Virus record (IMG/VR): IMGVR_UViG_3300009788_000106
Span: 1-64,000 of that record
From: a virus
Direction: 5' to 3' (one strand)
Length of the DNA: 64,000 nucleotides
The translations under genes were made by a program, and so were the position numbers. The notes below the pieces were generated by a model, which was given only the letters and a program-made list of their open reading frames with translations, had not been told where the DNA came from and did no database searches. Of this stretch, positions 5,689 through 62,688 are shown in pieces; within the stretch, counting starts at the first letter, position 1, and each line of letters begins with the position of its first letter.

Positions 5689-6302
5689 AATTTCAAAGAG
5701 CGGAGCGACCCATTGAAGTGAAGAAGGACGGTGACAGCTACGTCCCGGCAGGCAGGTGCCAGGTGCAGGAGGTACTATACGAAGGCCAAAACATAATGCC
5801 TTTGGTGCTGAGCATTGTTAAGCAGATCCCCATTCCACCAGACATTCGGGTGGACCACGATGCAGTCGTGGCGGAGGCCCTGTTTGGACTGAGCAAAGCA
5901 ATCCCCCTGTTTGATGGCACCCGTGGAGCCAAGTTTAGCACGTTCGCCTTCACCCGGATTCGTGGTGCCATCCTGGACATGATCCAAAGGGAACGCAAGT
6001 ACACGACCCGGTTTCAGCTTGAGCACCCTGCCGACTTCGATCTTCAAGAAAGCACAACGGACTTGGAAGCCGAGATCGATAAGCGCACACTGTTCCTCAA
6101 AGTGTCCAAGGTCCTCGAAGAGCGTGTACCGGTTCTAGAGGCGACTGTGATCATTCGGTCGTTCCTTGAAGGCCGCTCCGATGAGGAGATTGGGGCCGAA
6201 CTTGGGATGGACGAGTTCGACGTCCCCGATATCCGGTCACGGGGTTTGGCCATGGTCCGGGAACACTTCCCGGGCTGTCTCGCGATTATTAACAGGCAGT
6301 AA
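5685..6302 (+). CDS. sigma-70 family RNA polymerase sigma factor (regions 2 and 4)
   Basis: Region 2: DAVVAEALFGLSKAIPLFDGTRGAKFSTFAFTRIRGAILDMI. Region 4-like C-terminus: SDEEIGAELGMDEFDVPDIRSRGLAMVREH. The ATG overlaps the terL stop (ATGA). Confidence 0.7.
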   Translation: MKFQRAERPIEVKKDGDSYVPAGRCQVQEVLYEGQNIMPLVLSIVKQIPIPPDIRVDHDAVVAEALFGLSKAIPLFDGTRGAKFSTFAFTRIRGAILDMIQRERKYTTRFQLEHPADFDLQESTTDLEAEIDKRTLFLKVSKVLEERVPVLEATVIIRSFLEGRSDEEIGAELGMDEFDVPDIRSRGLAMVREHFPGCLAIINRQ

Positions 6303-34969: not shown

Positions 34970-34991
34970 TTTTGTTTTTGCCCCGTACCAT
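34970..34991 (+). promoter_or_regulatory. class II motif TTTTGTTTTTGCCCCGTACCAT
   Basis: One of 5 copies of TTTGCCCCGTAC(C/T)AT, all on the plus strand upstream of genes. Confidence 0.35.
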
Positions 34992-35079
34992 GTTCGTGAA
35001 GGACAAGAAAACCAAACTTGACAGCACAAATTCAACGCGGTAGCTTAGGGAAGTCACCTCACGGGAAAGGGGAACAGGA

Positions 35080-39028: not shown

Positions 39029-39601
39029 ATGGCAACGGCACAACCGATCATTGAAATCAACAAAGTCACCATGGACCGGCTGGCCGGTATGGTCTACAAG
39101 ATATGTGGGGAGGCGTACCAGCAAATGCCGGAGTGCCACAAACGCTGGATCGACCTGGGAGACTTGGTCTCTGAGGCCTGGATCAAGGTGTACCGCAAAT
39201 GGCACCTGCATGACCCGACCCGCGGCAAGGACTCCACTTTCGTGTTCACCGTGGTCCGCAACACAATGCGTGATAGGCTGAAGCAGCTGCGGGTATACAC
39301 ACGGTTTTGTCACGTCGTCAGTCTTGAGGAAGACTCCATCAAAGAACCCGAACGGATTGACGCTGGCTCGGCAGAACAGTCGGAGGCAGAGGATCGTGTC
39401 GGTAAGTTCCTGGGACTGGCTTCCCCAGCCCTTCGCACATTCATGCAAGTCCATTTCTTCCAGCGGCAACCTGGCCGGCCAAACTTTAACAAGTTCCTGC
39501 CGGAGGTCCTCCGCCTCCGTCGGCTAACCGGCTGTTCGGTCCAGGACTTCATGCTGTGCGCAGGCGGAGAGGTGAACGGGGCAAATGCCAAAAGAGTATA
39601 G
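39029..39601 (+). CDS. ECF-like sigma factor (region 2 clearly present)
   Basis: DLVSEAWIKVYRKWHLHDPTRGKDSTFVFTVVRNTMRDRLKQ matches sigma-70 regions 2.1-2.4. Region 4 is less clear. Confidence 0.5.
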   Translation: MATAQPIIEINKVTMDRLAGMVYKICGEAYQQMPECHKRWIDLGDLVSEAWIKVYRKWHLHDPTRGKDSTFVFTVVRNTMRDRLKQLRVYTRFCHVVSLEEDSIKEPERIDAGSAEQSEAEDRVGKFLGLASPALRTFMQVHFFQRQPGRPNFNKFLPEVLRLRRLTGCSVQDFMLCAGGEVNGANAKRV

Positions 39602-40169
39602 CATAGCGAAGACCCTTCTGTGCTTGTCGTGTGCGCGCAAGTTCTCTTTGCTTGACGTGTCCTCCTACCTGTACTTCCCAAAGACTCACACGTGCTTCGA
39701 GTGTTACATCAGGCTTCAGTTGAGACCCGTGGCCGAGTCGTGCTTCGGCCACCAGCCCAGCGACTCAGGTTACACATATGACCCGCAGTGCCCGGAGTGT
39801 TCCATGTTTTGCAGGGACCGGTTCATATGTCCACAGTTCATATCAGGGGAGGCCATCATGGCAAAGGAACTAGCAATGGAGCACAGACAACTGATCCTTG
39901 ATCGGTTCAAGGCCGGCCGCCTCAGATCCGGCGAGGAGAAACGCAAGGCTAAGTGGGCGGAAACACCCTTTGCCAAAGGGTCAATCCTGGAGGCCGTGTT
40001 CAAGAAGTGTGTGGCTGGCACCACATACACCAAGCTCGGGAAGTACTTGGGTGCAATAGGAGTCGCAAACCCGAAGCAGTACCTAACAGCAATGCGCCGG
40101 CAGGACGCGCATGGTCTCAAATGGGAGTTCAAAGATGACGAACAAGGCAACATCGAAATCAACTACTAA
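39585..40169 (+). CDS. Cys-rich hypothetical protein (putative zinc-binding)
   Basis: Multiple CxxC pairs in the N-terminal half (CLSCARK, CFECY, CPECSMFC). Confidence 0.4.
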   Translation: MPKEYSIAKTLLCLSCARKFSLLDVSSYLYFPKTHTCFECYIRLQLRPVAESCFGHQPSDSGYTYDPQCPECSMFCRDRFICPQFISGEAIMAKELAMEHRQLILDRFKAGRLRSGEEKRKAKWAETPFAKGSILEAVFKKCVAGTTYTKLGKYLGAIGVANPKQYLTAMRRQDAHGLKWEFKDDEQGNIEINY

Positions 40170-41133
40170 CGGCAGCGACTGGAAAGGTCCACAGCCCGAC
40201 GACACGTACCCGGTCATTTACTTCTCCGGCTTCCGGCACTACGCCGATGAGGGTATCAGGGAGAAGGAAATTTTCGAGCAAACCAAATGGGATGCCCGGT
40301 GCTTGTCCTACGCCTACTGTGGTGAGGGCTCCGACCTGTACATGAAGATCGCGGCTGAGACCCTCGCCTACTGCCAGGAGAATGACATTCGCATCCTGCT
40401 GGACTCAGGTGCCTTCTCATTCCGGGATACCCTTGCCAGCGACGACCTCGACTTGGTGGACCGGTTCGCAACCACTTACGCCAAGTGGATCAAGACCCGG
40501 CGCCAGGCCTTCGACTTCTACGTCAACCTCGACTACGTGCGCAACGCCTCCGCCTGCTGGAAGATGCAAATGCTTCTGGAGCGTAAAGGCCTCAGGCCGG
40601 TCCCGGTGTTCCATGGTGACAGTTCGATGGACTGGATGCGGAAGTACATCGACCGGGGGCACAAGTTGATTGGCCTTGGTACGCTTGGGTCCGGCTGGTC
40701 CACAGGCGTGAAGTACAAGTTCTACGACCGGTGTTTCAACCTGGCAGAACAGCATGGCGTCTACCTTCATGGCTTCGCCGTCACCGGTTCCAGTATGTTC
40801 CGGTTCCCATGGCACTCGGTGGACTCGGCAAGCTGGCTGAAGGCCGCTGTCTTCGGTGCCATCATCCTTTGCGATCCGTTCAGGGAGCAGGTTACAACAT
40901 GGAAGATTAGCGACCAGCCCACCAAGCGATCCGGCCACCAGCCGGGCGTAATCCAACGGCTGGAAGGTACCGCCCGGGAAGCTGTGATTGAGAAGCTGGA
41001 GGCGCAAGGCTACACATGGGACAGGCTGACTACCTCATCGTGGGAGCGTTCCCGGTTCAACATTCAGCAGTTCCGAGACGCCGTGGCAACGCGCGCCCGC
41101 CCGGTTTACAAAGGCACATGTGACTTGATTTGA
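40135..41133 (+). CDS. dpdA: DpdA-like 7-deazaguanine DNA transglycosylase (queuine tRNA-ribosyltransferase superfamily)
   Basis: ILLDSGAFSF motif and TIM-barrel-like length, immediately upstream of folE. Alternative ATG at 40111. Confidence 0.55.
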   Translation: MTNKATSKSTTNGSDWKGPQPDDTYPVIYFSGFRHYADEGIREKEIFEQTKWDARCLSYAYCGEGSDLYMKIAAETLAYCQENDIRILLDSGAFSFRDTLASDDLDLVDRFATTYAKWIKTRRQAFDFYVNLDYVRNASACWKMQMLLERKGLRPVPVFHGDSSMDWMRKYIDRGHKLIGLGTLGSGWSTGVKYKFYDRCFNLAEQHGVYLHGFAVTGSSMFRFPWHSVDSASWLKAAVFGAIILCDPFREQVTTWKISDQPTKRSGHQPGVIQRLEGTAREAVIEKLEAQGYTWDRLTTSSWERSRFNIQQFRDAVATRARPVYKGTCDLI

Positions 41134-41149
41134 CTTTGCCCCGTACTAT
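41121..41149 (+). promoter_or_regulatory. class II motif TGACTTGATTTGACTTTGCCCCGTACTAT
   Basis: Sequence read directly, 16 nt upstream of the folE ATG. Confidence 0.35.
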
Positions 41150-41165
41150 ACACCAAGGAGATCAA

Positions 41166-41747
41166 ATGGACGACGAGAGATTCACATGGAAGACTCAGTT
41201 ACGCTGTGCGCTGGCAAACATGATCGCGGCCACAAACCTATCCGCAGTGGTGGACCCTTCGCACCTTAAGGACACACCGGACCGGCTTGTCCGCATGTAT
41301 GACGAGATTTTTTGGGGCACCCGCAAGGACCCCGCAGCCGCACTAAACACTTCGTTTGCTGGGGACACCCATGACCAAATGATCATCGTTCAGGATGTGG
41401 AATTCACCAGTTGGTGTTCACATCACTTCTTGCCCTTTTCAGGCAAGTGGCACTTTGCCTATATACCAGGCGACTCCATCGTAGGGCTCTCCAAGATCCC
41501 ACGAATGATCGAAATACTGGCAGCCAGGCCCCAAGTCCAGGAAGGGCTCGCAGAGGACATAGTCGGAACATTCCAACAGACTGTACAGCCACTTGGTTGC
41601 GCAGTCGTCCTCGAAGCTACACACACATGCATGCAGGCCCGTGGCGTTCGCAAGAACGGTACCATGCGAACCACGGCCCTGCGCGGTGTGTTCCGTGACC
41701 CTCGGTCGTCCCACGTCAAGGCCGAATTTTTCACTGCAATCAAGTAA
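41166..41747 (+). CDS. folE: GTP cyclohydrolase I
   Basis: SWCSHHFLPFSGKWHFAYIP, the FolE active-site signature; RBS AAGGAGA. Confidence 0.8.
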   Translation: MDDERFTWKTQLRCALANMIAATNLSAVVDPSHLKDTPDRLVRMYDEIFWGTRKDPAAALNTSFAGDTHDQMIIVQDVEFTSWCSHHFLPFSGKWHFAYIPGDSIVGLSKIPRMIEILAARPQVQEGLAEDIVGTFQQTVQPLGCAVVLEATHTCMQARGVRKNGTMRTTALRGVFRDPRSSHVKAEFFTAIK

Positions 41748-42817: not shown

Positions 42818-45499
42818 ATGGTACAGTTTCTTGACCTTCTCGACGGAGGCAAAAAAGAGCTAGGCAAACAAGGGCGGCAGGTCTCCCAAAAGTGGAAGAC
42901 CGGAGGCGGTTGTATCGCCTGCCCATTGGACAGCGCAGACAGACCCAAAATCATCGGTACTGATCGTATCGAGGGTAGACCCGGAATGGTCTGGTCGCTG
43001 ACGCCAGGACGGCCAGAAGTAGAAGAGGGACTAGAACTGGTCGGCCCCAATGGGCGTATGCTATGGGAAGAGATCGAGGCCGCAGGCGGGTCGCGAGACT
43101 TGTTTGACACTCACCACATAGTATGCTGCCGCCCCACAACCCGAGTCGGGGCCACGGTCAAGAACAGGAACCCAAAGGATGTAGAACTTGAAGCGTGCTC
43201 CCACCACACGCGGCGGGCTGTTGGTGCGTCTGGCGGCGCTGCTTCAGTCTACCTGCTGCTTGGGGACAAGGTGGCCGATGCCGTGCTCGGCAAGCAACGC
43301 AAGAAGACAAAGCCGGTACAGTGGTCTAACAAGTACCAAGCTACAATGTTCTCTATTGATCACCCCGCCACGTTCACCCGTGGCGGATATCCTGAGTGGC
43401 GGTTAGAGGAGTGGCGTGAAAAGCTGAAGGCCGCGGTCTGGCTGGCAAAGCATCCCGGTCGCTGGGCGTTCCTGGAGACTGCAGACTTCAAGTATGTGTC
43501 CAAGGTCTCTAGCACGGCAAAGCTGATGGCCAAGCTCAGGCGGTTCGCAGCCAAGGGCCACCGCATTGCTGTTGATATAGAGGACTCGCCTAAGTATGGC
43601 CTGTTGAACGTGGGGTTCTCGTGGGCGCGGGGCAAGGCCCGAACCGTCATCCTATACCATCCAGAGAACCCGAACCCACAGGAGGCCGATGGCTGCTTGT
43701 CGCTGATCAAGGACTTCCTAGAGGACCCCGAGATCGAAAAGTCCTTCCACTGGGGAAGCTCCGACGTCAAGGGCCTCCGTGCCGAAGGCATCAAGGTCCG
43801 CGGGTACACCGGGGACACACACTACAGCAACTTCCTGCGCCGGACATACATGAAGTCGAACGGCCTCGAAGCGATCAGTGACAAGCTGTACCCGCTCTAT
43901 GCCGGGTACAAAGAATACATCAAGCCATACCTCAAGTCACCGATCGACTACGGTGACATCCCGCTGCAGCAGATCGCAAAGTACAACTGCGCCGACGCGG
44001 CCCTGACCTATGAGATCGACGCCGACACCACGCCCCATGTGAACCAGGACTTGTTGAAGGTATACGTCTGGGCCGGCATGACTTTGGATGGCATGCAATC
44101 ACGTGGGCCATGCTTGGATGAACGGTATATGAAGGCCGTGCGCAGGATCGTGCCACCAGCCATTGAGAAGAGCTTAAACGAACTGAGGTTGTTTGCCGAC
44201 AAACCGGCCTTCCGCTGTACGACTGAGGAAGTGGATGATCTACTATTCCGCAAGCTGAAACTAAAGAGGCCTGATGACAGCAAGGGCACGGACAAGAAGG
44301 TCCTCGAACGTATGCAACACGAGACGCCGCACCGGGCTGTGGACCTTGTCCTTGACTGGCGTATGTACAGCAAGATGCAGTCCACCTACATCGACGGGTA
44401 CGCAGAGTCCGCCCGGATACATGGCGGGCAACTCCGAACCAAGTGGGCGCTCGCTGGTGCCGTTACAGGCCGGCTCAGGAGTGGTGGCGGCAAACGGAAT
44501 CCCGGGTTTGTCAACATGCAGAACCTGCACGGCAAGCCCTTCCTTAAGAACTTGCTGGTGAGCGACCCCGACTGGTACCGGGTGCTCGACTGGAAGGGCG
44601 GTGCCATCCCAGAGGAGATCAAGGACCTTGACCTATTCATGGCATACGATTACAGCCAGGTCGAGATCAGGTTTCTTGCCATGGTCGCTCAGGACGAGCT
44701 GCTCATTAAACAGTTCATGCATGCGGCAACACAGGACGAGGGCGACCCAGCCAGTGACATACACTGCATTGTAGGCCACAGCATTAACCCGGAGTGGAGT
44801 CTAGAGTTCATCAAGTCCGACAAGGACACCCGCACGTTCATCAAGAACTGTCACTTCGGCTTGGTCTACGGGCTGTCCGAAGGTGGCCTGTACAACTACC
44901 TCAAAGTCAAAGGCATTAAGAAGACCGAGGAAGAGTCACGCGAGTTCCATCGCGGGTACTTCCGCACGTATAAGGGCGTCGGGCGGTACATCAAGTACAT
45001 GCGCAAGTTCGCCCTCGAACACGGGTACGTCGACACCATCTTTGGATTCCGCAGAGCCATTGGGGATGCCGCCGATGAGGAGCGCAACACGAACCCAGAG
45101 AACCAAGCAGTCAATTCGCCTATCCAAGGGGCCGCGCACCAGATGATCCTAAACGCAATGGCCCTACTACACCGCAAGCCAAAGACGTTCAACTTGCTGC
45201 GCAACCCCATTATGGAAGTCCATGATGCGCTGGTGTTCCGCACCAAGGTCCGGGACATGCAGGAGTGTTTCAAGCAGGGCAAGTACCTCATGGAGACCGC
45301 GGTCCCAGAGTTCACCCATAAGACCTTCGGGCGTAAGTTGGAAGTGCCCCTTGCGGCAGAGGCAGAGGCCGGCTTCCGATATGCCACTATGGTCGGGGAC
45401 TACCGTGGCACCAGCACTGACAAGTTCCTGCGGGACTGGCTCAAGTACAACATGAAGGTGGATGCCGACGTGCGTGACGAGTTCGGGCTTGCAGCTTGA
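42818..45499 (+). CDS. polA: family A DNA polymerase with an N-terminal uracil-DNA-glycosylase family-4-like domain
   Basis: Pol motifs DYSQVEIRFLA (A), RTFIKNCHFGLVYG (B) and VHDALVF (C). N-terminal GCIACPLD...GRPGMVW...VGPNGRMLWE...HHIVCCRP...SIDHPATFTRGG resembles UDG family 4. Confidence 0.8.
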   Translation: MVQFLDLLDGGKKELGKQGRQVSQKWKTGGGCIACPLDSADRPKIIGTDRIEGRPGMVWSLTPGRPEVEEGLELVGPNGRMLWEEIEAAGGSRDLFDTHHIVCCRPTTRVGATVKNRNPKDVELEACSHHTRRAVGASGGAASVYLLLGDKVADAVLGKQRKKTKPVQWSNKYQATMFSIDHPATFTRGGYPEWRLEEWREKLKAAVWLAKHPGRWAFLETADFKYVSKVSSTAKLMAKLRRFAAKGHRIAVDIEDSPKYGLLNVGFSWARGKARTVILYHPENPNPQEADGCLSLIKDFLEDPEIEKSFHWGSSDVKGLRAEGIKVRGYTGDTHYSNFLRRTYMKSNGLEAISDKLYPLYAGYKEYIKPYLKSPIDYGDIPLQQIAKYNCADAALTYEIDADTTPHVNQDLLKVYVWAGMTLDGMQSRGPCLDERYMKAVRRIVPPAIEKSLNELRLFADKPAFRCTTEEVDDLLFRKLKLKRPDDSKGTDKKVLERMQHETPHRAVDLVLDWRMYSKMQSTYIDGYAESARIHGGQLRTKWALAGAVTGRLRSGGGKRNPGFVNMQNLHGKPFLKNLLVSDPDWYRVLDWKGGAIPEEIKDLDLFMAYDYSQVEIRFLAMVAQDELLIKQFMHAATQDEGDPASDIHCIVGHSINPEWSLEFIKSDKDTRTFIKNCHFGLVYGLSEGGLYNYLKVKGIKKTEEESREFHRGYFRTYKGVGRYIKYMRKFALEHGYVDTIFGFRRAIGDAADEERNTNPENQAVNSPIQGAAHQMILNAMALLHRKPKTFNLLRNPIMEVHDALVFRTKVRDMQECFKQGKYLMETAVPEFTHKTFGRKLEVPLAAEAEAGFRYATMVGDYRGTSTDKFLRDWLKYNMKVDADVRDEFGLAA

Positions 45500-45515
45500 T
45501 TATGCCCCGTATAAT
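45495..45515 (+). promoter_or_regulatory. class II motif CTTGATTATGCCCCGTATAAT overlapping the polA stop
   Basis: Sequence read directly. Confidence 0.35.
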
Positions 45516-48689: not shown

Positions 48690-49694
48690 ATGCAGGAAGT
48701 TCTTGCAAAGGCAGCACGACCAAAGCGGTTATCCAGACTACTAGGGCAGAAGTCCCTAGTAGGGGCCATACGGAAACGGATTGACAGCGGACGCATTCCG
48801 AAGGCATGGTTGTTCTCCGGGGAGACAGGCGCCGGGAAGACTACCATCGCCCGCATCATCGCATTGTCCTTTCAAATGGTCACGGGTGACTTCGGCGAAC
48901 CCGGACCTGACATGTGGTCTGAGTACGAGGGGTTCGACATTCGGGAGATCAACGCATCGGACATTAACGGCGTGGACGACATGCGCCAGCTTGCCCGGGA
49001 CGCTGCCTTCATGCCCCAGCCAGGTTCCCTCAAGAAAATCATCATCTTGGATGAGGCACACCGCCTCACCGCAGCGGCCCAGAACTGCCTGCTGAAACCG
49101 TTCGAGGACACGGCAAAGGACACCGTCTGGATTGTATGTACCACCGAACCCGGCAAGATCATCAAGACTCTTCGGGGCCGGTGCGCTCAGTTCGAAATGA
49201 AGGGCTTAAGGTCTGGTGGTATCAAGATGCTGCTCAAGCGGGCGGCAAAGGCCGTGGCCTACTCGGGTGAGTTAGACACGCTGGTGGATGTCCTGGATGA
49301 GCAGGGCGTGTCCAGCCCGCGGGTCATCCTCGGCATTTTCGAGCACTTCATTGCTGGCGGGGACGCAAATCAAGCTGTACTAGTCGGCGGCAATGAGGTT
49401 GACGGGTACGCATTCTCAAAGCTGGTCTGGGCGCGTGAGTGGGCCGAAGTTGCCCCGGTACTGAAGGAGGCCACTGCGGAGCAAATGCGGAACCTGAGGT
49501 TCTCAGTGGTGGGTTACCTGCGTGCCATACTGCTAAGCACGAACAACAACGCAAAGACTCGCGTGATGGCCGCTGGCGCGATCGACCGGCTCAGTGTGTT
49601 CCCGCCGCCTGAGGACGGCATGTTCCGGGCGTGGTTCCCATCGCAGGTGTACCAGAGCATCCGGTTCATGGCTGGTACGGCGGCCAAAAAGTGA
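48690..49694 (+). CDS. AAA+ clamp loader subunit (DnaX/RFC-like)
   Basis: GETGAGKTTIARIIA (Walker A), IIILDEAHRLT (Walker B), TLRGRCAQF (sensor / SRC-like). Confidence 0.7.
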   Translation: MQEVLAKAARPKRLSRLLGQKSLVGAIRKRIDSGRIPKAWLFSGETGAGKTTIARIIALSFQMVTGDFGEPGPDMWSEYEGFDIREINASDINGVDDMRQLARDAAFMPQPGSLKKIIILDEAHRLTAAAQNCLLKPFEDTAKDTVWIVCTTEPGKIIKTLRGRCAQFEMKGLRSGGIKMLLKRAAKAVAYSGELDTLVDVLDEQGVSSPRVILGIFEHFIAGGDANQAVLVGGNEVDGYAFSKLVWAREWAEVAPVLKEATAEQMRNLRFSVVGYLRAILLSTNNNAKTRVMAAGAIDRLSVFPPPEDGMFRAWFPSQVYQSIRFMAGTAAKK

Positions 49695-52456
49695 AGCCCG
49701 GTCTCCTGTTCACTGGAGACTGGCAAATGTCCTGGAGCAACCTGGCTCAAGTCGAGCAGGCGGTCAAGGACATTCTAACCATTCACCAGACCAAGCGGAA
49801 GCTAGAGGCGGTAGTTCACCTTGGTGACGTCAAGCACATTCTGAACCCTGTGGACCAGCGCGTGTCAAACAAGGCCATCGAGATCGTCAAACGGTTCAAG
49901 GGCCTCGGCATCCGGTTCCTAGTTCTCCTTGGCAATCACGACCGGCTCAGCATGTCCGATGAGTCTCAGGACTGGTTCCCTACCCTGGCAGCAGCCGGGG
50001 CCGAGACCTTCACAGACCCCGACGTCATCCACATCTCTGAGAACGACGTTCGGTTGTTTATGTTGCCATTCCGTCGTGACAAAGCTGCACTCAAGGTGAC
50101 CGCTGCTGAGTTCGGTTCCCTGGCCGACCCGTCAAATGGCATCCTGTGCTTTCATGAGGACGTGTCTGGTGCCAAGTACGATCGACAACGGGGCATCGAG
50201 TCCGGACTGTCACGCAAGGCCCTACACATGGACAAGTACATGTTTGCCGTCGGTGGGCACGTACACTTCCGCCAGAAGATCGGGCCGAACGGCTGGTACG
50301 CTGGCAGCCCCTTTGCGATGGATTGGGGCGAGTGCAACCAGCGCAAGGGATACTTGCTGTACTCTGAAGGGCGTATGTACCGCCTTAGCAGCAGCCTTCC
50401 GGGCTGGTACGACCCAAGTGTCGCCGGGTTCGACAAAGTGGCACCAGCGTCGTTCAAAGGCGCACGGGTCCGTATCAGGGTCAACTACCGCAAGGAGGAC
50501 CCCAACTATCAGCAGAAGCTGGACACCGCCCAGCGGTCGGCCTCGGAGAAGTACCCGGATGCCGAGATCGTTCTCGACCCGCGGCAACTCAAAACCGAGG
50601 TCGAGTCCATTGCAGCCGAAGGGGATGACGGGGACATCATTAAAGCGTTTCTGAAGGCAAACACTCCTAAGCCCTTGCGCGGCCAGGAAGGGGCCCTGCT
50701 GGCCTACTTGACTAACCGACTGGAGTTGACTGGTAAGTCACTGCGCAGGCAAGGTGCCATAGACATCACTCGCGTGGTGGGCCGGAACGCCATGTCGTTC
50801 GAGACCGTGGAAGTGCCAATGCAACCCGGCATCACAGTGGTCACCGGCAAGAACCTCGACTGGGATGGCCGGTCCAACGGGTCCGGGAAGACCTCCTTGC
50901 TCCACTTGATCCCGATTGCGCTAGAGGGGAAGACCCTGAAGGGGCAGAAGCACGATGGATGGGTTCGTGAAGGCAGCACCGGGCCGGCCACGGTAGGCCT
51001 CGAAATGAGGTTGCCCGACGGGTCAACCTTCGAAGTATATAGGCAGCGCCGCCCCACGCGGTTGACTGTGATGCACAATGGTCAGGACATTTCGACCGGC
51101 ATGGGGCAAGCCGACACCCAAAAACGAATCCAGGAACTAACCGGCATGACTTGGGACATCTTGACGAATGCGGTATTTATCGACCAGCTACAGGTGAACG
51201 CTCTGCTACATGGGACGCCCACCGACCGCAAGAAGCTGCTTGCTCAGTTCCTAAACATTGAACGGTTCGAGGACGCGCAACAGGTTATCCGCAATGAGAT
51301 CCGCTCCGCGCAACGGTTCATGGAAGAATGGGATGAAGAAGTCGAAGCATCCCAGGTGGAGATAAGGCGTTACAGGGAGTTCATTAAGGACTTGGTGCTA
51401 CCAGACACCAAGGCGCTGCGCACGCAACTGGCGGGCCTCAAACGGGCGGCAAAGACCCAACAGGAGAACGTCGACCAGTGGCAACAGTACCTTGACGACT
51501 TGCCACCACAGCCGAACCCGGATGACGTGCGAAACTACACGACATCAGTCGGTCGTGTGGCTGGCAGGATTTTTGCCCTTGAGGACCAGATCTCTGAAGC
51601 TGAGGGCCAGCCCGACAAGTGCCCGACGTGTGGACAGAAGCTAAACCAAGTCAAGGTCCCACCACAGGCAAAGGCAAAGGCCGAACTCAAGAAGTGGAGA
51701 GTGACGCACAAGCAACTAAAGGGCGAGCTTGCCAAGGCGCAGCAGGAGAAGGAGGAGTGGGCCGACGACAGGCGGGAGGCCCTGATCAATCTCACAGCGG
51801 CACGGGCAAGGCTCCGAACCACCAAAGCCGAGCAGGCAGCGCCCCTGGCCCTACTGGCAGCAGCAGAGCAGGTTGAGACCAAGCGATCCAAGTACCAGAG
51901 CCTCAAGCGGGTGAACATGGCAAACCTTAAAATCTTCAAGCAAGGCGTCGTGGACATGGGACTAGAGGTCGAGTTCCTCAAGTTCGCGGCAGAGGCCTTT
52001 TCGCGGAACGGTGTGCCGGCATTCATCATGGCCGAGCTATGCCCCCGCCTCACCGCAGCTGCTGACTACTATTCGGACCTGTTCTCCGACGGGGAAATCA
52101 CGGCCACCTTTGCCATGGACAAGTCCGACATCGACGTCCAGATTATCAACCAACATGGCGGCCCCAAGATCGAGGACCAGTCTCGCGGCGAGACCAAAAT
52201 GGCTTCCCTGATCCTGTCCTTCGCCCTGCGGGACGTGACTAACCCGTGCAACATTCTGATCGCTGACGAACCCGGCGACGGGCTGGACGAAGTGAACGCC
52301 CGCCAGTTTGCCCGAGGCCTCAAGAAAGTCAAGCAAAGGTTCCCGGTCATACTGGTATGTACTCATGACCCACACATCCTTGCCGAGTTGTCCGGTGAAC
52401 GGCAAGCGACAATTATTAAGCAGAACGGAGTATCAGAGGTCACATATGGCAGCTAA
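49691..52456 (+). CDS. fused SbcD(Mre11)-SbcC(Rad50) nuclease/ATPase in one polypeptide
   Basis: N-terminal metallophosphatase motifs (LLFTGDWQ, HLGDVKH, LLGNHDR, GGHVH), then ABC ATPase Walker A GRSNGSGKTSL, coiled coil with zinc hook CPTCGQ, and C-terminal ILIADEPGDGLDE (Walker B / D-loop). GTG at 49691 overlaps the upstream stop. Confidence 0.65.
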   Translation: MKPGLLFTGDWQMSWSNLAQVEQAVKDILTIHQTKRKLEAVVHLGDVKHILNPVDQRVSNKAIEIVKRFKGLGIRFLVLLGNHDRLSMSDESQDWFPTLAAAGAETFTDPDVIHISENDVRLFMLPFRRDKAALKVTAAEFGSLADPSNGILCFHEDVSGAKYDRQRGIESGLSRKALHMDKYMFAVGGHVHFRQKIGPNGWYAGSPFAMDWGECNQRKGYLLYSEGRMYRLSSSLPGWYDPSVAGFDKVAPASFKGARVRIRVNYRKEDPNYQQKLDTAQRSASEKYPDAEIVLDPRQLKTEVESIAAEGDDGDIIKAFLKANTPKPLRGQEGALLAYLTNRLELTGKSLRRQGAIDITRVVGRNAMSFETVEVPMQPGITVVTGKNLDWDGRSNGSGKTSLLHLIPIALEGKTLKGQKHDGWVREGSTGPATVGLEMRLPDGSTFEVYRQRRPTRLTVMHNGQDISTGMGQADTQKRIQELTGMTWDILTNAVFIDQLQVNALLHGTPTDRKKLLAQFLNIERFEDAQQVIRNEIRSAQRFMEEWDEEVEASQVEIRRYREFIKDLVLPDTKALRTQLAGLKRAAKTQQENVDQWQQYLDDLPPQPNPDDVRNYTTSVGRVAGRIFALEDQISEAEGQPDKCPTCGQKLNQVKVPPQAKAKAELKKWRVTHKQLKGELAKAQQEKEEWADDRREALINLTAARARLRTTKAEQAAPLALLAAAEQVETKRSKYQSLKRVNMANLKIFKQGVVDMGLEVEFLKFAAEAFSRNGVPAFIMAELCPRLTAAADYYSDLFSDGEITATFAMDKSDIDVQIINQHGGPKIEDQSRGETKMASLILSFALRDVTNPCNILIADEPGDGLDEVNARQFARGLKKVKQRFPVILVCTHDPHILAELSGERQATIIKQNGVSEVTYGS

Positions 52457-53686: not shown

Positions 53687-53703
53687 GTTTTGCCCCGTAC
53701 CAT
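53686..53703 (+). promoter_or_regulatory. class II motif AGTTTTGCCCCGTACCAT, 5 nt upstream of the queD ATG
   Basis: Sequence read directly. Confidence 0.35.
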
Positions 53704-53708
53704 AGGGC

Positions 53709-54317
53709 ATGAGAATTACGAAAGACTTCAAATTTGAGGCGTCGCATGTTGTTCCGGGGCATCCTGGCAAGTGCCAGAGATTGCACGGCCATTCGTACGT
53801 CCTGCACATCACAGTCCATGGCACTGTACACCCGGCCACCGGGTTCATCGTGGACTTTGGGGACATCAAAGCCATGGTCCAGCCACTGATCGATACCCTC
53901 GACCACCGGCACCTAAACTTCTTCATTGCGAATCCCACCGCCGAGAACATTGCGGCATGGTTCGGCCAGCGCCTATCCCGTATCGTGGATCGCTACGCCA
54001 TCACCGGGCTGGAAGTCACAGTGCTTGAGACGGCCACGTCCAGCGCCACATGGGACTCCCGGCTGGAAGTCGATGCCAAGCACGGGCAGAACCCTTCAAT
54101 CTACGGCACGGGCATTCCAGTGGCCCATGATGGCCTGTCGCCCCAAGCCCAAATCGGCCCGGTCATCATCCCAGCGGCAGAGTACGAATCCTACATGACC
54201 ACCTTCCGGCTAGCCCGCCGAGCCTGCGCCCGGAGGATCAACCTAATCCGCGAGCACGGGCGGGAGTTGCTGCCGGCAAAGTACATGAACCAACTCGGTA
54301 CAGTGAAGGAGCAATAG
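53709..54317 (+). CDS. queD: 6-carboxy-5,6,7,8-tetrahydropterin synthase
   Basis: CQRLHGHSY (Cx3HGH) plus catalytic His/Glu pattern typical of the QueD/PTPS fold. Confidence 0.8.
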   Translation: MRITKDFKFEASHVVPGHPGKCQRLHGHSYVLHITVHGTVHPATGFIVDFGDIKAMVQPLIDTLDHRHLNFFIANPTAENIAAWFGQRLSRIVDRYAITGLEVTVLETATSSATWDSRLEVDAKHGQNPSIYGTGIPVAHDGLSPQAQIGPVIIPAAEYESYMTTFRLARRACARRINLIREHGRELLPAKYMNQLGTVKEQ

Positions 54318-55082
54318 GTGAAATTTCCCATCGCAGAACAGTTCATCTCACTACAAGGCGAAGGCCGGTATACCGGTACACTCATGCAGTTCATCCGCCT
54401 GGCTGGCTGCAACGTCGGCCGACGCACCGGAGTTCGGAGTCCGGCTCTGGCACAGTCATTGGCCCTGCCGGTCTTTCAGCACCATAAGGTGTGCGAGTCC
54501 GCCATCGGGCAAGAGTTCATGTGCGACACGGACTACGGTGCCAAGTTTGACTTGACAGCCCTACAAATGGCAGACCTGATCCGCAAGTCCGGTACCAAGC
54601 ACGTCTGCCTAACAGGCGGTGAACCTCTGCTACACGATGTCCTCATGGTCTCGGCGCTGTGCCAGGAGTTACAGGTCCAGCTTCACATTGAGACGTCTGG
54701 GACCAAGGTAATCCCCGACGAGCTCAGTGCTGACCACGTCGCCTGCTCGCCGAAGGCCGGGTTCCTATTTGAGAATTGGGGGCACGTGGATGAGTACAAG
54801 TTCGTCATCGGCCCCGATGCCGGGACCCCGAGTGACATTGTAGGTAAGCTAACTGGGTTCTTCGCTTTGGGTATTGCCGCCCGGCAGCAGGACGACCCAG
54901 ATCAAGACCAGTTTGCGCCGACTGAGACCCCGGCGAACCCGTTTGCCGATGTGTACGTCCAGCCAGTGAACGGGGTGCGCACAGTGGACGCCTCAAGCAT
55001 GGCAACCTGCCTGGCCGTGGTCCGGCTGCGGCCTCATTGGGCTGTGTCCTTCCAGACTCACAAACTACTTAATCTGCCCTAA
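54318..55082 (+). CDS. queE: 7-carboxy-7-deazaguanine synthase with atypical Cys spacing (C-x27-C-x9-C)
   Basis: N-terminal ISLQGEGRYTGTLMQFIRLAGCN and CDTDYG are QueE hallmarks. A 27-residue insert sits between the first and second cluster cysteines. Confidence 0.65.
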   Translation: MKFPIAEQFISLQGEGRYTGTLMQFIRLAGCNVGRRTGVRSPALAQSLALPVFQHHKVCESAIGQEFMCDTDYGAKFDLTALQMADLIRKSGTKHVCLTGGEPLLHDVLMVSALCQELQVQLHIETSGTKVIPDELSADHVACSPKAGFLFENWGHVDEYKFVIGPDAGTPSDIVGKLTGFFALGIAARQQDDPDQDQFAPTETPANPFADVYVQPVNGVRTVDASSMATCLAVVRLRPHWAVSFQTHKLLNLP

Positions 55083-55096
55083 TCGCAAATGAGTGC

Positions 55097-55125
55097 TTGA
55101 CGTCTCGGCAAAACCGTGTCACTAT
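55097..55125 (+). promoter_or_regulatory. class I promoter TTGACG-N17(TCTCGGCAAAACCGTGT)-CACTAT
   Basis: Sequence read directly, upstream of the vWA gene. Confidence 0.45.
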
Positions 55126-55181
55126 TGGATTGTCACCCGGCAAAACACGGGCAGGCAAAAGGAAAAAGGAAAACACAAACC

Positions 55182-56222
55182 ATGGCACAAGACATTTTTG
55201 ATCTGGACACCTTCGACGCGACTCAGGGCGTCAACAACGACACCGACACCGAGCTGGCCACCACGGTCGGCAGCACCATGGCGGACCTGCATGACAAGAC
55301 CAAGAAGCTGCTGTTTGCCATCGATTGCTCTGGCAGCATGTACGGTGAGATGTACTCTAACGCGCAGCTCCTGGCATCCAACTGGGCGCCGGGTGAGTCG
55401 CTGATCGACGAGAAGATTGCCAGGGCAAACGCCTACATTCAGGCTGCCAGCCAGGGCCACATTGCGCCCGAACCGGCCCCGCGGTATGACGCATGGGACA
55501 ACCTGATCCCGGCACCGAAACCCGAGTTCGATGACGAGTCGGCCTTGTACTGGGCGGGCCTGAAACCGCTGGACTTTGATGCCAGGGTCAACCGCATCAT
55601 CGCCGAGGCCGCATACATGGACGTGGACGGGCTGATCCAGACAAACCAGTGGACCACGACGGGCGTCGTCCGGATTCAGGGTGAAGGCAAATGCAAGATG
55701 GACATTGTGAAGGGGGAAGTGCTCGGGCAGATCGAGGCCCGGTTCTCCAAGCACGCGGACGCTGATGTCGCCGCGGTGGCCTTTGATAACCGTTCCAAGG
55801 ACCTTTACGCCTACTCGCTCAAGTCGCTTCAGCACCGGGTGCCGAACATGGACGCGGGCATGGGCGGAGGCACCAACATTGCCGGTGCCATCTTCACCTG
55901 CCTCCGCATGATCAAGAAGTCCCCTTCGGCCACCAACAACCACCACATCGTCATCGTGTCGGATGGTATGGACAACTCTGTTTCCCACAGCGCCGCCCAG
56001 ATCAAAAAAGAGTTCGAGGACAAGGGCGTCACGATGGACTTCATCCACATCACCGGCCTCGACCAGGACACATACGGGCAGCGGGAAGTGGTCGAACTGA
56101 AGCAGCTCTCCGGTCTCACGGGCGGCGAGTATGTCCGGGTCCGCACCACCGACCAGTTCAAGTCCAAGTTCATCGCCGCGGCAACCCGGCTGGCCCTGCC
56201 GGCTCCCGCATCCGACCAGTAG
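55182..56222 (+). CDS. von Willebrand factor A domain protein
   Basis: MIDAS LLFAIDCSGSM and IVIVSDGMDN. Confidence 0.6.
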   Translation: MAQDIFDLDTFDATQGVNNDTDTELATTVGSTMADLHDKTKKLLFAIDCSGSMYGEMYSNAQLLASNWAPGESLIDEKIARANAYIQAASQGHIAPEPAPRYDAWDNLIPAPKPEFDDESALYWAGLKPLDFDARVNRIIAEAAYMDVDGLIQTNQWTTTGVVRIQGEGKCKMDIVKGEVLGQIEARFSKHADADVAAVAFDNRSKDLYAYSLKSLQHRVPNMDAGMGGGTNIAGAIFTCLRMIKKSPSATNNHHIVIVSDGMDNSVSHSAAQIKKEFEDKGVTMDFIHITGLDQDTYGQREVVELKQLSGLTGGEYVRVRTTDQFKSKFIAAATRLALPAPASDQ

Positions 56223-56325: not shown

Positions 56326-57399
56326 ATGAAAAAGTCGCAAATCAGAAAGCTCATCCCGAAGGTACCGGACCTAAGACGGGCGCACAAGGCACTCATCACC
56401 GCCGACGTGACCGACAGGGTCATCGCCCTCCGCACGGTCATGGATTGGTTTGATGTGTATACCACCTTGGTTCGATCTCAGGTCATCGCCGCAGGCGGGC
56501 AACGCAAACTGGACCTGGCAGCTAAGATCAAACCTCTGGCAGCGCGGCACGACACTCCGGCATTCGAGGCCGAGACCGCACTGATTCAGGCTATCCGCAT
56601 GTTGGAGTCGGCGCTGGCACCAGCGGTCCCTACCCTCAAGCTACCTCGGATCAATGACGCATGGGCCGAGTACGAATCAAAGAAGATTGCGCTGGAGCAC
56701 AAGGCAGCGAAGGCCATAGTAAAGTTTGCTGCTCTCAAGGCCGGGCTGGACCAGTTCTTCAAACCCTTGGGACTAACCTTTAAGTTTAGCAAGGACCTTC
56801 CCAAGCCCCGGCAGTTCGACGCCACTGGCCGCGTCCTGTACTCCTTCGACTACGCTGGCACCTTGGTGCAAGAGCTCAAGGCCAATGGCTTGGACTCGGT
56901 CCTCATGGGCCAAGCCCCGGCAATCCTCAAGGCGGCTTCGCTTTCAGTCAGCAACGGCAAGCTCTTAATCTCAATGGCCAAGCTCATGGACTTGTTACCG
57001 GGCCTGCTGGTTTCCATCTACGGGCTGGGGGCAAGTAGCAAGAGCACGTCAACGCCCGCTACGGCGCCTCCGGCAACGCCTAAGGCCACACCGACACCGA
57101 ACCCGACCCCAACGACGCCGAAGCCCCCGAAGGCCACACCAGCCCCGCCGATAGGTGGACTGAGTCCTGAGGCTGCCAAGTACTTCCGGGCTGGCACGCA
57201 ACAGCTTTTGTTCGACCGCCTCATCAAGGTAGCAGGCGGGCGCATTTCCATGGCCGACTTGTACGACGGCCTGAGCGCGGGCGACCCCCGCCGCATGATC
57301 CTCAGCATCCACCAGAAGGGCGTGAAGCTCGGACTGTGGGAGGCAAACCGCTACGGCAAAATGGTACACTTTGATTGGACAGGAGGACCGCACGTATGA
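56326..57399 (+). CDS. hypothetical protein with a Pro/Thr-rich linker
   Basis: ORF with RBS GAGGT; a TPATAPPATPKATPTPNPTPTTPKPPKATPAPP linker separates two domains. Confidence 0.45.
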   Translation: MKKSQIRKLIPKVPDLRRAHKALITADVTDRVIALRTVMDWFDVYTTLVRSQVIAAGGQRKLDLAAKIKPLAARHDTPAFEAETALIQAIRMLESALAPAVPTLKLPRINDAWAEYESKKIALEHKAAKAIVKFAALKAGLDQFFKPLGLTFKFSKDLPKPRQFDATGRVLYSFDYAGTLVQELKANGLDSVLMGQAPAILKAASLSVSNGKLLISMAKLMDLLPGLLVSIYGLGASSKSTSTPATAPPATPKATPTPNPTPTTPKPPKATPAPPIGGLSPEAAKYFRAGTQQLLFDRLIKVAGGRISMADLYDGLSAGDPRRMILSIHQKGVKLGLWEANRYGKMVHFDWTGGPHV

Positions 57400-58301
57400 A
57401 AATGTCCGCTGCCGAAATTGCCAAGCTACCCAAAGGTGTCTTGGCAACCGAGAGGTGTGACAGTCAAAGATGCGGCAAGCCGCTGATTGGCCTGCTCATC
57501 TGGCGTTCAAAGGACAGGGCTCACGCCTACTGTTCAAACGCCTGTTTTGAAGAATCCGAACCAGCAAGATCGAGCGGTGGCGAACCCACCAAAAAAGGAG
57601 ACAAAACCATGATTAGCAAAGGCAAGAAACGCAACAAGAAGGCCGCCGCCGCACCCGAGGTGGATGAGGAAGAGGACATGATGGAAGAGGAGGAAATGGA
57701 GGACGAGGACGAGACCCCAGCACCGAAGCAGAAGGCCAAAAAGAAACGCAAGTCGAAGCCGGCCCCGGTCGAGGAGGACGAGGACGAGGACCCGGAGGAC
57801 GAGGAGGACGAGGACGAGGACGAGGAGGACGACCCGGAGGACGACCCGGAGGACGACCCGGAGGACGACCCGGAGGACGACCCGGAGGACGACCCGGAGG
57901 ACGGCGACGACTCCGATGAGGAGGACCCGGAGGATGAGGAGGACCCGGAGGAAGAGACCGTGCCGGTCAAGGTCAAGAAGCCACGGGGCAACCGGGTCAA
58001 ACCTGGCAACCCGACCAAGAAGGTCACCGCCAAGGAACGCAAGGCGAACCTCAAGGCCATGAAGGGCAAGACCAGTCCGTTCCGCGCCGGGACTCGGTGT
58101 GACATGCTGTTTCGGAAGCTGGCCTCGGGCAAACGGTTCAAAAGCATGGATACCCTTGTCAAGGGGATCGACCCGCCGCCCGGAGATCCGCAGCGTATGG
58201 TCAGTATGATCCGCGCCAAGGGTCTTGAGAATGGCCTGTACACCATCGTGAACGACGCTGGTTCCTGGCAGATGACCGAGAACCACTTGGCAACTGACTA
58301 G
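57396..58301 (+). CDS. Cys-cluster protein with a highly acidic repeat core (6x DDPE) and a basic C-terminal domain
   Basis: N-terminus CDSQRCGKP...HAYCSNAC; a KKRKSKPAPVEEDEDED module as in the 46047 product; 12-nt repeat gacgacccggag x6 at about 57829-57900. Confidence 0.45.
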   Translation: MKMSAAEIAKLPKGVLATERCDSQRCGKPLIGLLIWRSKDRAHAYCSNACFEESEPARSSGGEPTKKGDKTMISKGKKRNKKAAAAPEVDEEEDMMEEEEMEDEDETPAPKQKAKKKRKSKPAPVEEDEDEDPEDEEDEDEDEEDDPEDDPEDDPEDDPEDDPEDDPEDGDDSDEEDPEDEEDPEEETVPVKVKKPRGNRVKPGNPTKKVTAKERKANLKAMKGKTSPFRAGTRCDMLFRKLASGKRFKSMDTLVKGIDPPPGDPQRMVSMIRAKGLENGLYTIVNDAGSWQMTENHLATD

Positions 58302-62373: not shown

Positions 62374-62688
62374 ATGCCGAAACAAGAACTGAAACTGAAG
62401 CACCCCGAGCGCCTATGGGTGCTGTCTGTTGAATACACCGAAGGTGGTGGCTCTGAGGTCTGGTGGCCAGTCAACAACCCGCCATGGAGACTGTACGAGG
62501 CAGGGGAAGAGTTCGAGATCACCTTTGCCCGCTCCGTTGACGGCAAGGTGGTGCTTATGGAACTGAGGGATGAGCAGGGCCGGCATGCGGGCTGGGACGT
62601 TGACAAGTGCCCCGCCGAACGCTCGGATTCGGACGACTTGTTTGAGCTTTGCCCCGTACCATGTAACAAACCGGAGACCACCGCATGA
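62374..62688 (+). CDS. hypothetical protein (104 aa)
   Basis: RBS AAAGGAGATCG. Its 3' end contains a class II motif (62647-62662). Confidence 0.4.
   Translation: MPKQELKLKHPERLWVLSVEYTEGGGSEVWWPVNNPPWRLYEAGEEFEITFARSVDGKVVLMELRDEQGRHAGWDVDKCPAERSDSDDLFELCPVPCNKPETTA
62647..62662 (+). promoter_or_regulatory. class II motif CTTTGCCCCGTACCAT
   Basis: Sequence read directly. Confidence 0.35.

Follow-up and report, generated by a model that had tools for sequence, protein, structure and literature searches.

Known 7-deazaguanine DNA modification systems

7-Deazaguanine DNA modifications are an established counter-defence of phages. The closest described systems to the locus discussed here are the DpdA1 systems of the Queuovirinae (Enterobacteria phage 9g, Escherichia phage CAjan/Seuratvirus) and of related Vibrio siphophages. 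In the Queuovirinae, the genes lie together in a compact cluster, queE-queC-queD-folE-dpdA, with QueC or Gat-QueC among its products. The DpdA of phage 9g incorporates preQ0 into DNA and makes it resistant to restriction (PMC6884629, PMC10516641).

Other systems do without QueC. [quoted passage not shown] Mycobacterium phage Bipper, a cultured and completely sequenced actinophage, encodes DpdA as well as FolE, QueD and QueE, with only QueC missing, and could therefore carry a CDG modification according to its authors (PMC6884629). In bacteria, DpdA is part of the Dpd restriction-modification system, as described for Salmonella Montevideo (PDB 7ui4; PMC10164549). This bacterial enzyme sits in a host defence island, is larger (~413 aa), has DpdA-specific insertions, and requires the DpdB ATPase.

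Here, we compare these systems with a viral locus from the first 64,000 nucleotides of the IMG/VR record IMGVR_UViG_3300009788_000106 (hereafter, the window). Taking the evidence below together, we consider it probable (roughly 85%) that this phage encodes a DpdA-based 7-deazaguanine DNA modification, with no particular base implied. With the Queuovirinae it shares the DpdA family at profile level, the motifs DSGAF, PxxH, HxF, YPWxSxDS, and RxxxN, and phage-encoded FolE, QueD and QueE. Even the surroundings agree, as dpdA and folE adjoin clamp and polymerase genes in both, the window order (dpdA-folE-clamp-PolA, within a DNA replication module) mirroring the folE-dpdA-clamp-pol order of the Queuovirinae. 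On the other hand, the phages are unrelated, the DpdA proteins are only 26-29% identical, and the window holds two gene pairs 12 kb apart, with QueC not found. The DpdL-type systems resemble the window in being QueC-less and in their FolE, QueD, QueE and DpdA; three clade relatives of the window are of this type, whereas the window itself has no DpdL. The transglycosylase of phiST, moreover, is a DpdA3 and goes undetected by the window family profile (hhalign probability 0.7%). The bacterial enzyme is 16% identical to the viral protein of the window, which counts 332 aa. Bipper, finally, is alike in gene content: the same four genes are present and only QueC is missing.

A divergent DpdA

The dpdA gene (40135..41133, plus strand) is predicted to encode a DNA guanine/7-deazaguanine transglycosylase of the DpdA family, 332 aa long, or 340 aa from an alternative start at 40111. 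The ATG at 40135 is the better predicted start because a GGGAG Shine-Dalgarno sequence lies 7 nt upstream and because an 87%-identical homologue (P0002) starts at the equivalent residue. The first-pass annotation had described the product as a TGT-superfamily protein with the DpdA-type DSGAF motif, which is indeed present as LLDSGAFSF, and had proposed to drop the idea of DNA modification if the protein grouped with tRNA-modifying TGT or ArcTGT. It groups by sequence with the DNA-acting DpdA proteins, away from both: profile A1 aligns to Seuratvirus DpdA with a probability of 99.9% (hhalign, E 1e-31, 243 columns), against 0.2% for the family profile and E. coli Tgt. In addition, the protein matches phrog_887 (9e-30), and tblastn matched 160 phage records, some of them Seuratvirus genes that bear the annotation '7-deazaguanosine inserting enzyme DpdA'. 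The best matches in BFVD are phage proteins called 'queuine tRNA-ribosyltransferase' (DpdA), with the DpdA2 of Vibrio phage nt-1 at rank 32 (E 2e-5) and phiST at rank 41.

TGTs have a conserved Cys/His zinc-binding site, whereas neither alignment A1 nor A3 of the window DpdA family contains a conserved cysteine column or Cys cluster. Pfam TGT (PF01702) and the NCBIfam models gave no match to the protein at E 0.01 or better, and none of 70 homologues carries a precomputed Pfam domain. Standard annotation thus misses these systems, since Pfam and NCBIfam do not recognise this DpdA branch.

Profile A1 found no relative in the PDB, and the 53-sequence profile A3 reached a single PDB sequence, 7ui4, in a match that is weak alone (E 0.12). 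In this alignment, the family-invariant residues D90, F94, D133, H160 and D230 fall onto Asp95, Phe99, Asp130, His181 and Asp256, whose roles we take from PMC10164549. The window protein has the TGT-type TIM-barrel fold, the Phe gate, the His for base binding and all three invariant aspartates of the active site (general acid/base, base-binding and nucleophile).

Its place within the family is less clear-cut. Among the proteins compared (Seuratvirus DpdA, phiST DpdA3 and nt-1 DpdA2), the window DpdA is clearly related to the first, which is of the DpdA1 type, and shows no detectable relationship to the DpdA3 of phiST. H160 and H212 are invariant in its family, and DpdA2 is said to lack such a His. 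At 26-29% identity, which is also all that it shares with the experimentally tested DpdAs, it could equally count as a new subfamily. We see it as a divergent new DpdA in an already known kind of system. The branch to which it belongs is large and almost exclusively viral, with at least 528 matches in IMG/VR and only 20 weak ones, all on MAG contigs, in 185,579 bacterial and archaeal genomes. Being scattered over many phyla, these MAG contigs were rejected as a guide to the host.

Separately, we considered whether DpdA residues could predict the inserted base, as DSGAF versus DSGAH and HGFG versus HGFA separate QueC-linked from DpdL-linked DpdAs. This was rejected: within the window's own clade, the QueC-linked L011 and the DpdL-linked L025 have identical residues, so that the signal is phylogenetic, not functional.

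Pathway genes and proposed route

The folE gene (41166..41747, plus strand) encodes a GTP cyclohydrolase I of type IA with 193 aa. Its start is almost certainly the ATG at 41166 and not the TTG at 41130 of the mechanical ORF: an AAGGAG ribosome-binding site lies 5 nt before this ATG, and gene callers picked the same start on other contigs (193 aa). With this start, dpdA and folE are 32 nt apart and do not overlap. As had been claimed, a FolE with the signature SWCSHHFLPF...HFAYIP directly follows dpdA, and the gene is intact. It matches Pfam GTP_cyclohydroI (PF01227) at 1.4e-53 (181 bits) and scores above the cutoffs of NF006826 (175.2, cutoff 162) and NF006825 (174.7, cutoff 174) and slightly below that of the equivalog TIGR00063 (177, cutoff 181.6). 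Both zinc-ligand motifs, C..HH (WCSHH) and HTC, are present.

The other pair was likewise located as the first-pass annotation had it, 12 kb away, with both genes downstream. Here, queD (53709..54317, plus strand) encodes a 6-carboxytetrahydropterin (CPH4) synthase of 202 aa, which matches Pfam PTPS (2e-33, residues 3-115), exceeds the cutoff of the NCBIfam equivalog TIGR03367 (98, cutoff 89.25), and carries the CxxxHGH signature as CQRLHGH. A C-terminal extension of ~85 aa lies outside the family and is retained in the relative L100. The adjoining queE (54318..55082, plus strand) encodes a divergent radical-SAM CDG synthase. It matches phrog_2076 (1e-27), and its best five NCBIfam matches are all QueE equivalogs, all far under their cutoffs (77.7 vs 240). 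In alignment A2 with nine phage QueE proteins, G14-E15-G16, the cluster cysteines C31/C59/C69, TGGEP, E125-T126 of IETSG, Q246 and H248-K249 are kept, and a 27-aa insert separates cluster cysteines 1 and 2. The names that JGI gives to close QueE homologues include '7-carboxy-7-deazaguanine synthase'; in IMG/VR itself, no close QueE relatives were found.

FolE, QueD and QueE thus look catalytically intact from their sequences. Given the many homologues of each gene, dpdA, folE, queD and queE are evidently not chance ORFs.

Upstream of dpdA, and overlapping its start, lies a Cys-rich ORF (39585..40169, plus strand; 194 aa) with no Pfam, PHROG or NCBIfam match. A jackhmmer search found it in all members of the window's DpdA clade (L009-L011, L020-L031 and L073), where it usually comes just ahead of dpdA, and nowhere among the ~60 other DpdA loci; tblastn to L010 gave E 4e-27. 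It may possibly be part of the modification system.

Following homology and intact motifs, FolE would convert GTP to dihydroneopterin triphosphate (H2NTP) in the first step, QueD would turn this into CPH4, and QueE would yield CDG. The encoded pathway is short of the canonical preQ0 route. Judging from its fold, catalytic residues and characterised relatives, DpdA would then act on double-stranded phage DNA after its replication, remove guanine by way of a covalent intermediate between Asp and deoxyribose (D230 as the nucleophile, D90 as the general acid/base), and put in the free 7-deazaguanine base. DNA modified in this way would be expected to withstand host restriction enzymes.

The search for QueC and DpdL

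The earlier statement that the window holds no QueC-like ORF was borne out by every search, also in the 4.1 kb beyond the window. The SGGxDS motif is absent from all six frames of the window, tblastn with three phage QueC seeds gave no match, and a QueC HMM built from 34 relatives reached a best E of 0.24 across 68,135 bp. The DpdL alternative had been missing from that earlier reading. In the window, the motif LxxxHRHxF was not found, and the sole match of a DpdL HMM (28 sequences) across 68,135 bp was QueD itself (E 0.18). These custom HMMs were applied, with --max, to all six-frame segments of at least 30 aa. Altogether, the 68,135 bp contain exactly one DpdA, FolE, QueD and QueE each, with no QueC and no DpdL, and no DpdB or DpdC homologue was seen.

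The length of 68,135 bp is as far as the sequence could be reconstructed: contig L005 alone carried it past the window, as far as window coordinate 68,135. Sequence is missing at both ends of the genome, with ThyX truncated at base 1 and a tail-fibre-like gene truncated at the far end, so that a gene not found in the window may still belong to the phage. An exact search of IMG/VR with the end sequences gave no match. In the metagenomes, the ThyX fragment retrieved only relatives at 47% identity, and a protein search with it reached a best identity of 63%, the best contig among the matches being uninformative. Terminase, portal, tape-measure and replication genes are also encoded on the contig. 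There was no near DNA match to the phage, and its PolA is at most 28% identical to that of any cultured phage; by these comparisons, it has no cultured relative.

Further candidates were also rejected. A radical-SAM ORF (706-1554) was considered as a QueE paralogue, but it gave E 0.04 with the QueE HMM and just a weak PflA-like match. The neighbours of queD-queE, namely a VWA protein (55116-56222), a 357-aa ORF, a 308-aa ORF and a PDDEXK gene, were considered as a source of an alternative enzyme; they appear unlinked to the pathway, having neither counterparts in other DpdA loci nor informative family matches.

Related loci in IMG/VR

Among 80 related IMG/VR loci, folE lies within 10 kb of dpdA in 68 and is adjacent to it in 30. 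QueC occurs in 28 of the 80 and DpdL in 27, and none has both. A further 12 have QueD/E and neither QueC nor DpdL within 10 kb, matching the pattern of the window; L058, with a compact queD-queE-folE-dpdA operon, is one of them. Elsewhere among the related loci, L048 and L051 carry a CN_hydrolase gene. The census thus shows QueC and DpdL as strictly alternative by gene content, next to a third class with neither, to which the window would belong. Close to the window, both alternatives are found: in the clade member L011, queC overlaps the start of dpdA, and L021, L022 and L025, among the closest relatives of the window DpdA, carry DpdL in the order dpdA-folE-dpdL or dpdA-dpdL-folE.

Which base is inserted

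Within the DpdA-based modification that we favour, the base itself can be read in several ways. The first is that preQ0 or a derivative is inserted; QueC would then come from the host or from phage sequence missing in the assembly, and the known phage genes would do no more than raise the flux to CDG. The characterised DpdA1 and bacterial DpdA enzymes use preQ0 as their substrate (PMC6884629, PMC10164549), QueC is present in about a third of the related loci, L011 of the same clade included, and host participation has been proposed for partial-pathway phages (PMC6884629). However, QueC was not found in 68 kb, and there is no obvious reason why a phage should encode three of four steps but rely on its host for the final, ATP-dependent one. 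We would put this reading somewhat below even odds.

The gene content of the 68,135 bp and of the 12 similar loci could also be taken at face value: CDG would be the end product, as the first-pass annotation had cautiously suggested, inserted directly by DpdA, and dCDG would be the principal genomic modification. Bipper offers a precedent, since QueC alone is missing there and its host genus is without the Q pathway (PMC6884629). A phage DpdA2, namely that of VH7D, does insert CDG in a delta-queC E. coli background, but ~40-fold less efficiently than preQ1 (PMC10516641). The only natural dCDG reported so far, moreover, comes from an archaeal virus, where it accounts for 0.04% of Gs (PMC10516641), and members of the window's own clade bear QueC (L011) or DpdL (L021, L022 and L025). 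Sequence is also missing at both ends of the genome, and what is missing borders on ThyX, a gene of nucleotide metabolism. We hold direct insertion of CDG to be a tentative possibility.

Extending this idea, the phage and those related DpdA loci with QueD/E and neither QueC nor DpdL (~15%) might all stop at CDG, with CDG as the cognate substrate of this DpdA branch and the main genomic modification, possibly aided by the clade-specific Cys-rich protein. This we consider rather unlikely; if true, a pathway dedicated to dCDG would be seen for the first time in a bacteriophage lineage.

More doubtful still is the insertion of dDG, for which a DpdL lying in the unassembled sequence would have to decarboxylate CDG. 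QueC-less phages with DpdA, FolE, QueD and QueE typically have DpdL (PMC10516641), and the QueD paralogue with LxxxHRHxF is found in a third of the related loci, never alongside QueC and with three carriers among the closest relatives of the window DpdA. Against this stand the negative motif and HMM searches in 68 kb and the fact that the slots taken by dpdL in the relatives (beside folE or dpdA) here hold the clamp gene and the Cys-rich ORF. We regard this outcome as improbable.

It is most improbable that there is no DNA modification at all, the protein being a tRNA-modifying phage TGT or FolE, QueD and QueE just boosting host queuosine or folate metabolism: FolE does also open the folate pathway, a ThyX gene is present, and databases name the relatives 'queuine tRNA-ribosyltransferase', but the family profile fails to pick up E. 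coli Tgt and has no Pfam TGT match, the protein has no conserved Cys cluster for a zinc site and is at 332 aa too short for extra C-terminal domains as in ArcTGT, the family is nearly absent from prokaryotic genomes, its nearest characterised relatives act on DNA (PMC6884629), and the gene lies within a DNA replication module in a window with no tRNA genes.

One more example of a DpdA-based phage modification is mainly of cataloguing value. The class of loci with neither QueC nor DpdL, on the other hand, provides concrete candidates for asking if phages can use dCDG as a primary modification of their DNA.

A motif shared by both gene pairs

A 15-nt motif, TTGCCCCGTACYAT, is possibly a phage promoter or operator; as a promoter, it might serve the sigma-like proteins of the phage. 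One copy, TTGCCCCGTACTATA (41136..41150, plus strand), lies in the dpdA-folE gap, 16 nt ahead of the folE ATG, and a second, TTGCCCCGTACCATA (53690..53704, plus strand), lies 5 nt ahead of the queD ATG. Its presence upstream of both genes suggests that the separated dpdA-folE and queD-queE halves may be regulated together. In the 64 kb, the motif has four matches (0.14 expected), all on the plus strand and all upstream of gene starts, and in the relatives L100 and L101 it is likewise found at this position ahead of queD.

A Divergent DpdA of Essentially Viral Distribution

The genes discussed here are best read as a predicted DpdA-based system for modifying DNA with 7-deazaguanine, acting after replication by base exchange, a reading to which we give a probability of roughly 85%. 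Its central gene, dpdA, extends from 40135 (alternative start 40111) to 41133 on the plus strand and encodes a 332-aa protein with an LLDSGAFSF stretch. The start at 40135, chosen in the first-pass annotation, is preferred since its ATG is preceded by a GGGAG ribosome-binding site and a homologue with 87% identity begins at the equivalent residue. As the product matched nothing in Pfam or NCBIfam, and no Pfam domain was found among its 70 database homologues, its assignment required independent support.

At the sequence level, the protein was assigned to phrog_887 in PHROGs (9e-30), and tblastn retrieved 160 phage records at 25-30% identity, among them Seuratvirus genes that carry the annotation DpdA (7-deazaguanosine-inserting enzyme). 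A profile of 31 family sequences aligned with the Seuratvirus DpdA over 243 columns (hhalign probability 99.9%, E 1e-31) but did not recognize Escherichia coli tRNA Tgt (0.2%); the DpdA3 of phiST (0.7%) likewise went unrecognized. The AlphaFold model is confident (pLDDT 88.5), and its top BFVD matches are phage DpdA-type proteins, with nt-1 DpdA2 at rank 32 and phiST DpdA3 at rank 41. A 53-sequence profile matched a single PDB entry, 7ui4, with a weak E-value (0.12) and in exact register: the family-invariant D90, F94, D133, H160, and D230 fall on Asp95, Phe99, Asp130, His181, and Asp256. In 7ui4 these serve as the general acid/base (Asp95), the gate (Phe99), the base-recognition residues (Asp130 and His181), and the nucleophile (Asp256) (PMC10164549). 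Given this sequence, structural, and catalytic-residue evidence, the protein does not group with tRNA-modifying TGT or ArcTGT, and the original identification stands: it is a divergent DpdA, apparently closest to the DpdA1 type. More than 528 relatives occur in IMG/VR, and 185,579 prokaryotic genomes yielded 20 weak matches, all on MAG contigs; the family is thus essentially viral.

A Cys-rich ORF of 194 aa without family match (39585-40169, plus strand) overlaps the dpdA start. With jackhmmer it was found in every member of this DpdA clade, in most of them just ahead of dpdA and in some divided into two pieces, and in none of about 60 other DpdA loci. It may encode a partner protein or simply mark the lineage.

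The Predicted Route from GTP to CDG

A mechanical ORF call placed the folE start at TTG 41130; this was rejected in favor of ATG 41166 (plus strand), which follows an AAGGAG, so that dpdA and folE are 32 nt apart. Judged by its sequence, the FolE assignment is unambiguous, with a Pfam match of 1.4e-53, scores that clear the cutoffs of two NCBIfam FolE subfamily models, and intact zinc-ligand motifs. The adjacent dpdA-folE pair reported earlier is confirmed, and its interpretation as part of a modification system supported. On the same strand, the product of queD (53709-54317) shows the CxxxHGH signature and scores above the cutoff of the QueD equivalog model in NCBIfam; past its T-fold domain it continues for about 85 aa at the C-terminus, an extension retained in the relative L100. 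The stop codon of queD is followed at once by queE (54318-55082), whose divergent product matches only QueE models, all below their cutoffs. This product retains the QueE motifs and the three cysteines of the iron-sulfur cluster; an insert of 27 aa separates the first of these cysteines from the second. With FolE, QueD, QueE, and DpdA all present, the phage is predicted to supply both the transglycosylase and the enzymes that lead from GTP to CDG, a divergent new example of an already known kind of system.

Downstream of queE, a VWA-domain protein is followed by two adjacent plus-strand ORFs (56326-57399 and 57375-58301) that have no family match and are 43% identical to each other over about 56 C-terminal residues. 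No other DpdA locus was found to contain any of these three.

The Phage and Its Genome

The window is a portion of an uncultured tailed phage with a GC content of about 57% and almost all genes on the plus strand. No near DNA match was found among 50,697 phage records, and no cultured phage has a PolA more than 28% identical to the one encoded here. Genes for the terminase, portal, and tail lie at about 4-27 kb; the replication module occupies 33-48 kb and recombination genes 47-53 kb, after which come small ORFs. The DNA polymerase A (42818-45499, plus strand) has a UDG-like domain at its N-terminus, as in the relatives L010 and L011, and SbcD and SbcC form a single fused protein of 941 aa (49631-52456, plus strand), a fusion also seen in the syntenic relative L102.

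An overlapping ENA contig (L005) adds 4.1 kb past the window's end, giving a reconstructed sequence of 68,135 bp. The genome is nevertheless incomplete: the ThyX gene (1-464) is cut off at base 1, the opposite end interrupts a tail-fibre-like gene, and attempts to extend either end gained no further sequence. An independently assembled ENA contig (L007) starts at the identical base, suggesting that assembly breaks reproducibly within thyX, for instance at an inserted element or where strains differ. Next to ThyX lies a radical-SAM protein of 282 aa (706-1554, plus strand; Pfam Radical_SAM, 29.6 bits) with no PHROG and only a weak PflA-activase-like match; it was rejected as a QueE paralogue.

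The Inserted Base

The reported absence of QueC from the window is borne out and extends over all 68,135 bp: no motif appeared in six frames, and nothing was found either when three phage QueC sequences, including one from the same DpdA clade, served as tblastn queries or when an unfiltered HMM of 34 QueC sequences was run on every six-frame segment. For comparison, we surveyed 80 IMG/VR loci in which a relative of this DpdA is encoded, with 10 kb to either side, classing genes by iteratively built HMMs. QueC was present in 28 of the 80 and a DpdL-type QueD paralogue in 27, never together (0/80), while 12 loci had QueD and/or QueE without either and 13 had no QueD/E within range. Among the 12 loci with QueD and/or QueE that lack both QueC and DpdL are compact operons (queD-queE-folE-dpdA in L058, for one), and it is in this class that our phage falls, as far as the 68,135 bp of its incomplete genome are visible. 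In two of these 12, a carbon-nitrogen hydrolase gene lies inside the cluster (L048, 8243-9277; L051, 5508-6740).

The leading candidate, though a tentative one, is preQ0, made with a host QueC or one encoded in the unseen part of the genome. A near relative of the window DpdA (L011) has a queC overlapping the dpdA start; around queD-queE, the gene order is kept, with no queC seen, in L100, which is closely related to that half, and in the more distant L102. Direct insertion of CDG, yielding dCDG, is possible and ranks a close second. This was the hedged suggestion of the first-pass annotation. Precedents exist but are thin: Bipper lacks QueC alone (PMC6884629), a DpdA2 inserts CDG in delta-queC E. 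coli about 40-fold less efficiently than preQ1, and in nature dCDG has been seen in an archaeal virus alone, where it makes up 0.04% of Gs (PMC10516641).

For phages that lack QueC, the published alternative is DpdL, a paralogue of QueD that has an LxxxHRHxF motif and is proposed to decarboxylate CDG to 7-deazaguanine (PMC10516641). Among the nearest relatives of the window DpdA, dpdL adjoins dpdA and folE in L021, L022, and L025; motif and HMM searches found it absent from the 68,135 bp, and dDG by way of a dpdL in the unseen part is unlikely. Some other base is improbable. Reading substrate preference from class-specific DpdA residues was rejected, being confounded by phylogeny.

Variation among Related Loci

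Gene content differs among the nearest DpdA relatives. The locus of L009, whose DpdA is 82% identical to that of the window, has dpdA-folE only; in L010 (44%), folE is accompanied by three dpdA paralogues in tandem. In L076, FolE2 replaces FolE. In several relatives dpdA occurs as two or three paralogues with 30-36% pairwise identity, in tandem in L010 (9151-12259), L012 (6299-8199), L013 (5970-7870), and L044 (8971-10891), and separated by queE and other genes in L020 (192-1346 and 3924-4901). They may confer broader sequence specificity or a higher modification density. We know of no earlier description of multiple dpdA paralogues in a phage locus.

A Motif Upstream of Both Pathway Halves

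The window contains four copies of a 15-nt motif, TTGCCCCGTACYAT(A/G), where 0.14 would be expected, always on the plus strand upstream of a gene start (34978-34992, 41136-41150, 53690-53704, and 62649-62663), with a variant at 45504-45515. One copy precedes the folE ATG by 16 nt and another the queD ATG by 5 nt. The motif is kept before queD in the relatives L100 and L101 and ends in a -10-like hexamer, TACYAT. Its role may be that of a phage-specific promoter or operator; as a promoter, it may tie both pathway halves together. The phage bearing it also encodes two sigma-70 region-2-like proteins on the plus strand, one adjoining the terminase gene (5685-6302) and one two genes upstream of dpdA (39029-39601), the latter with relatives across most of the phage clade.
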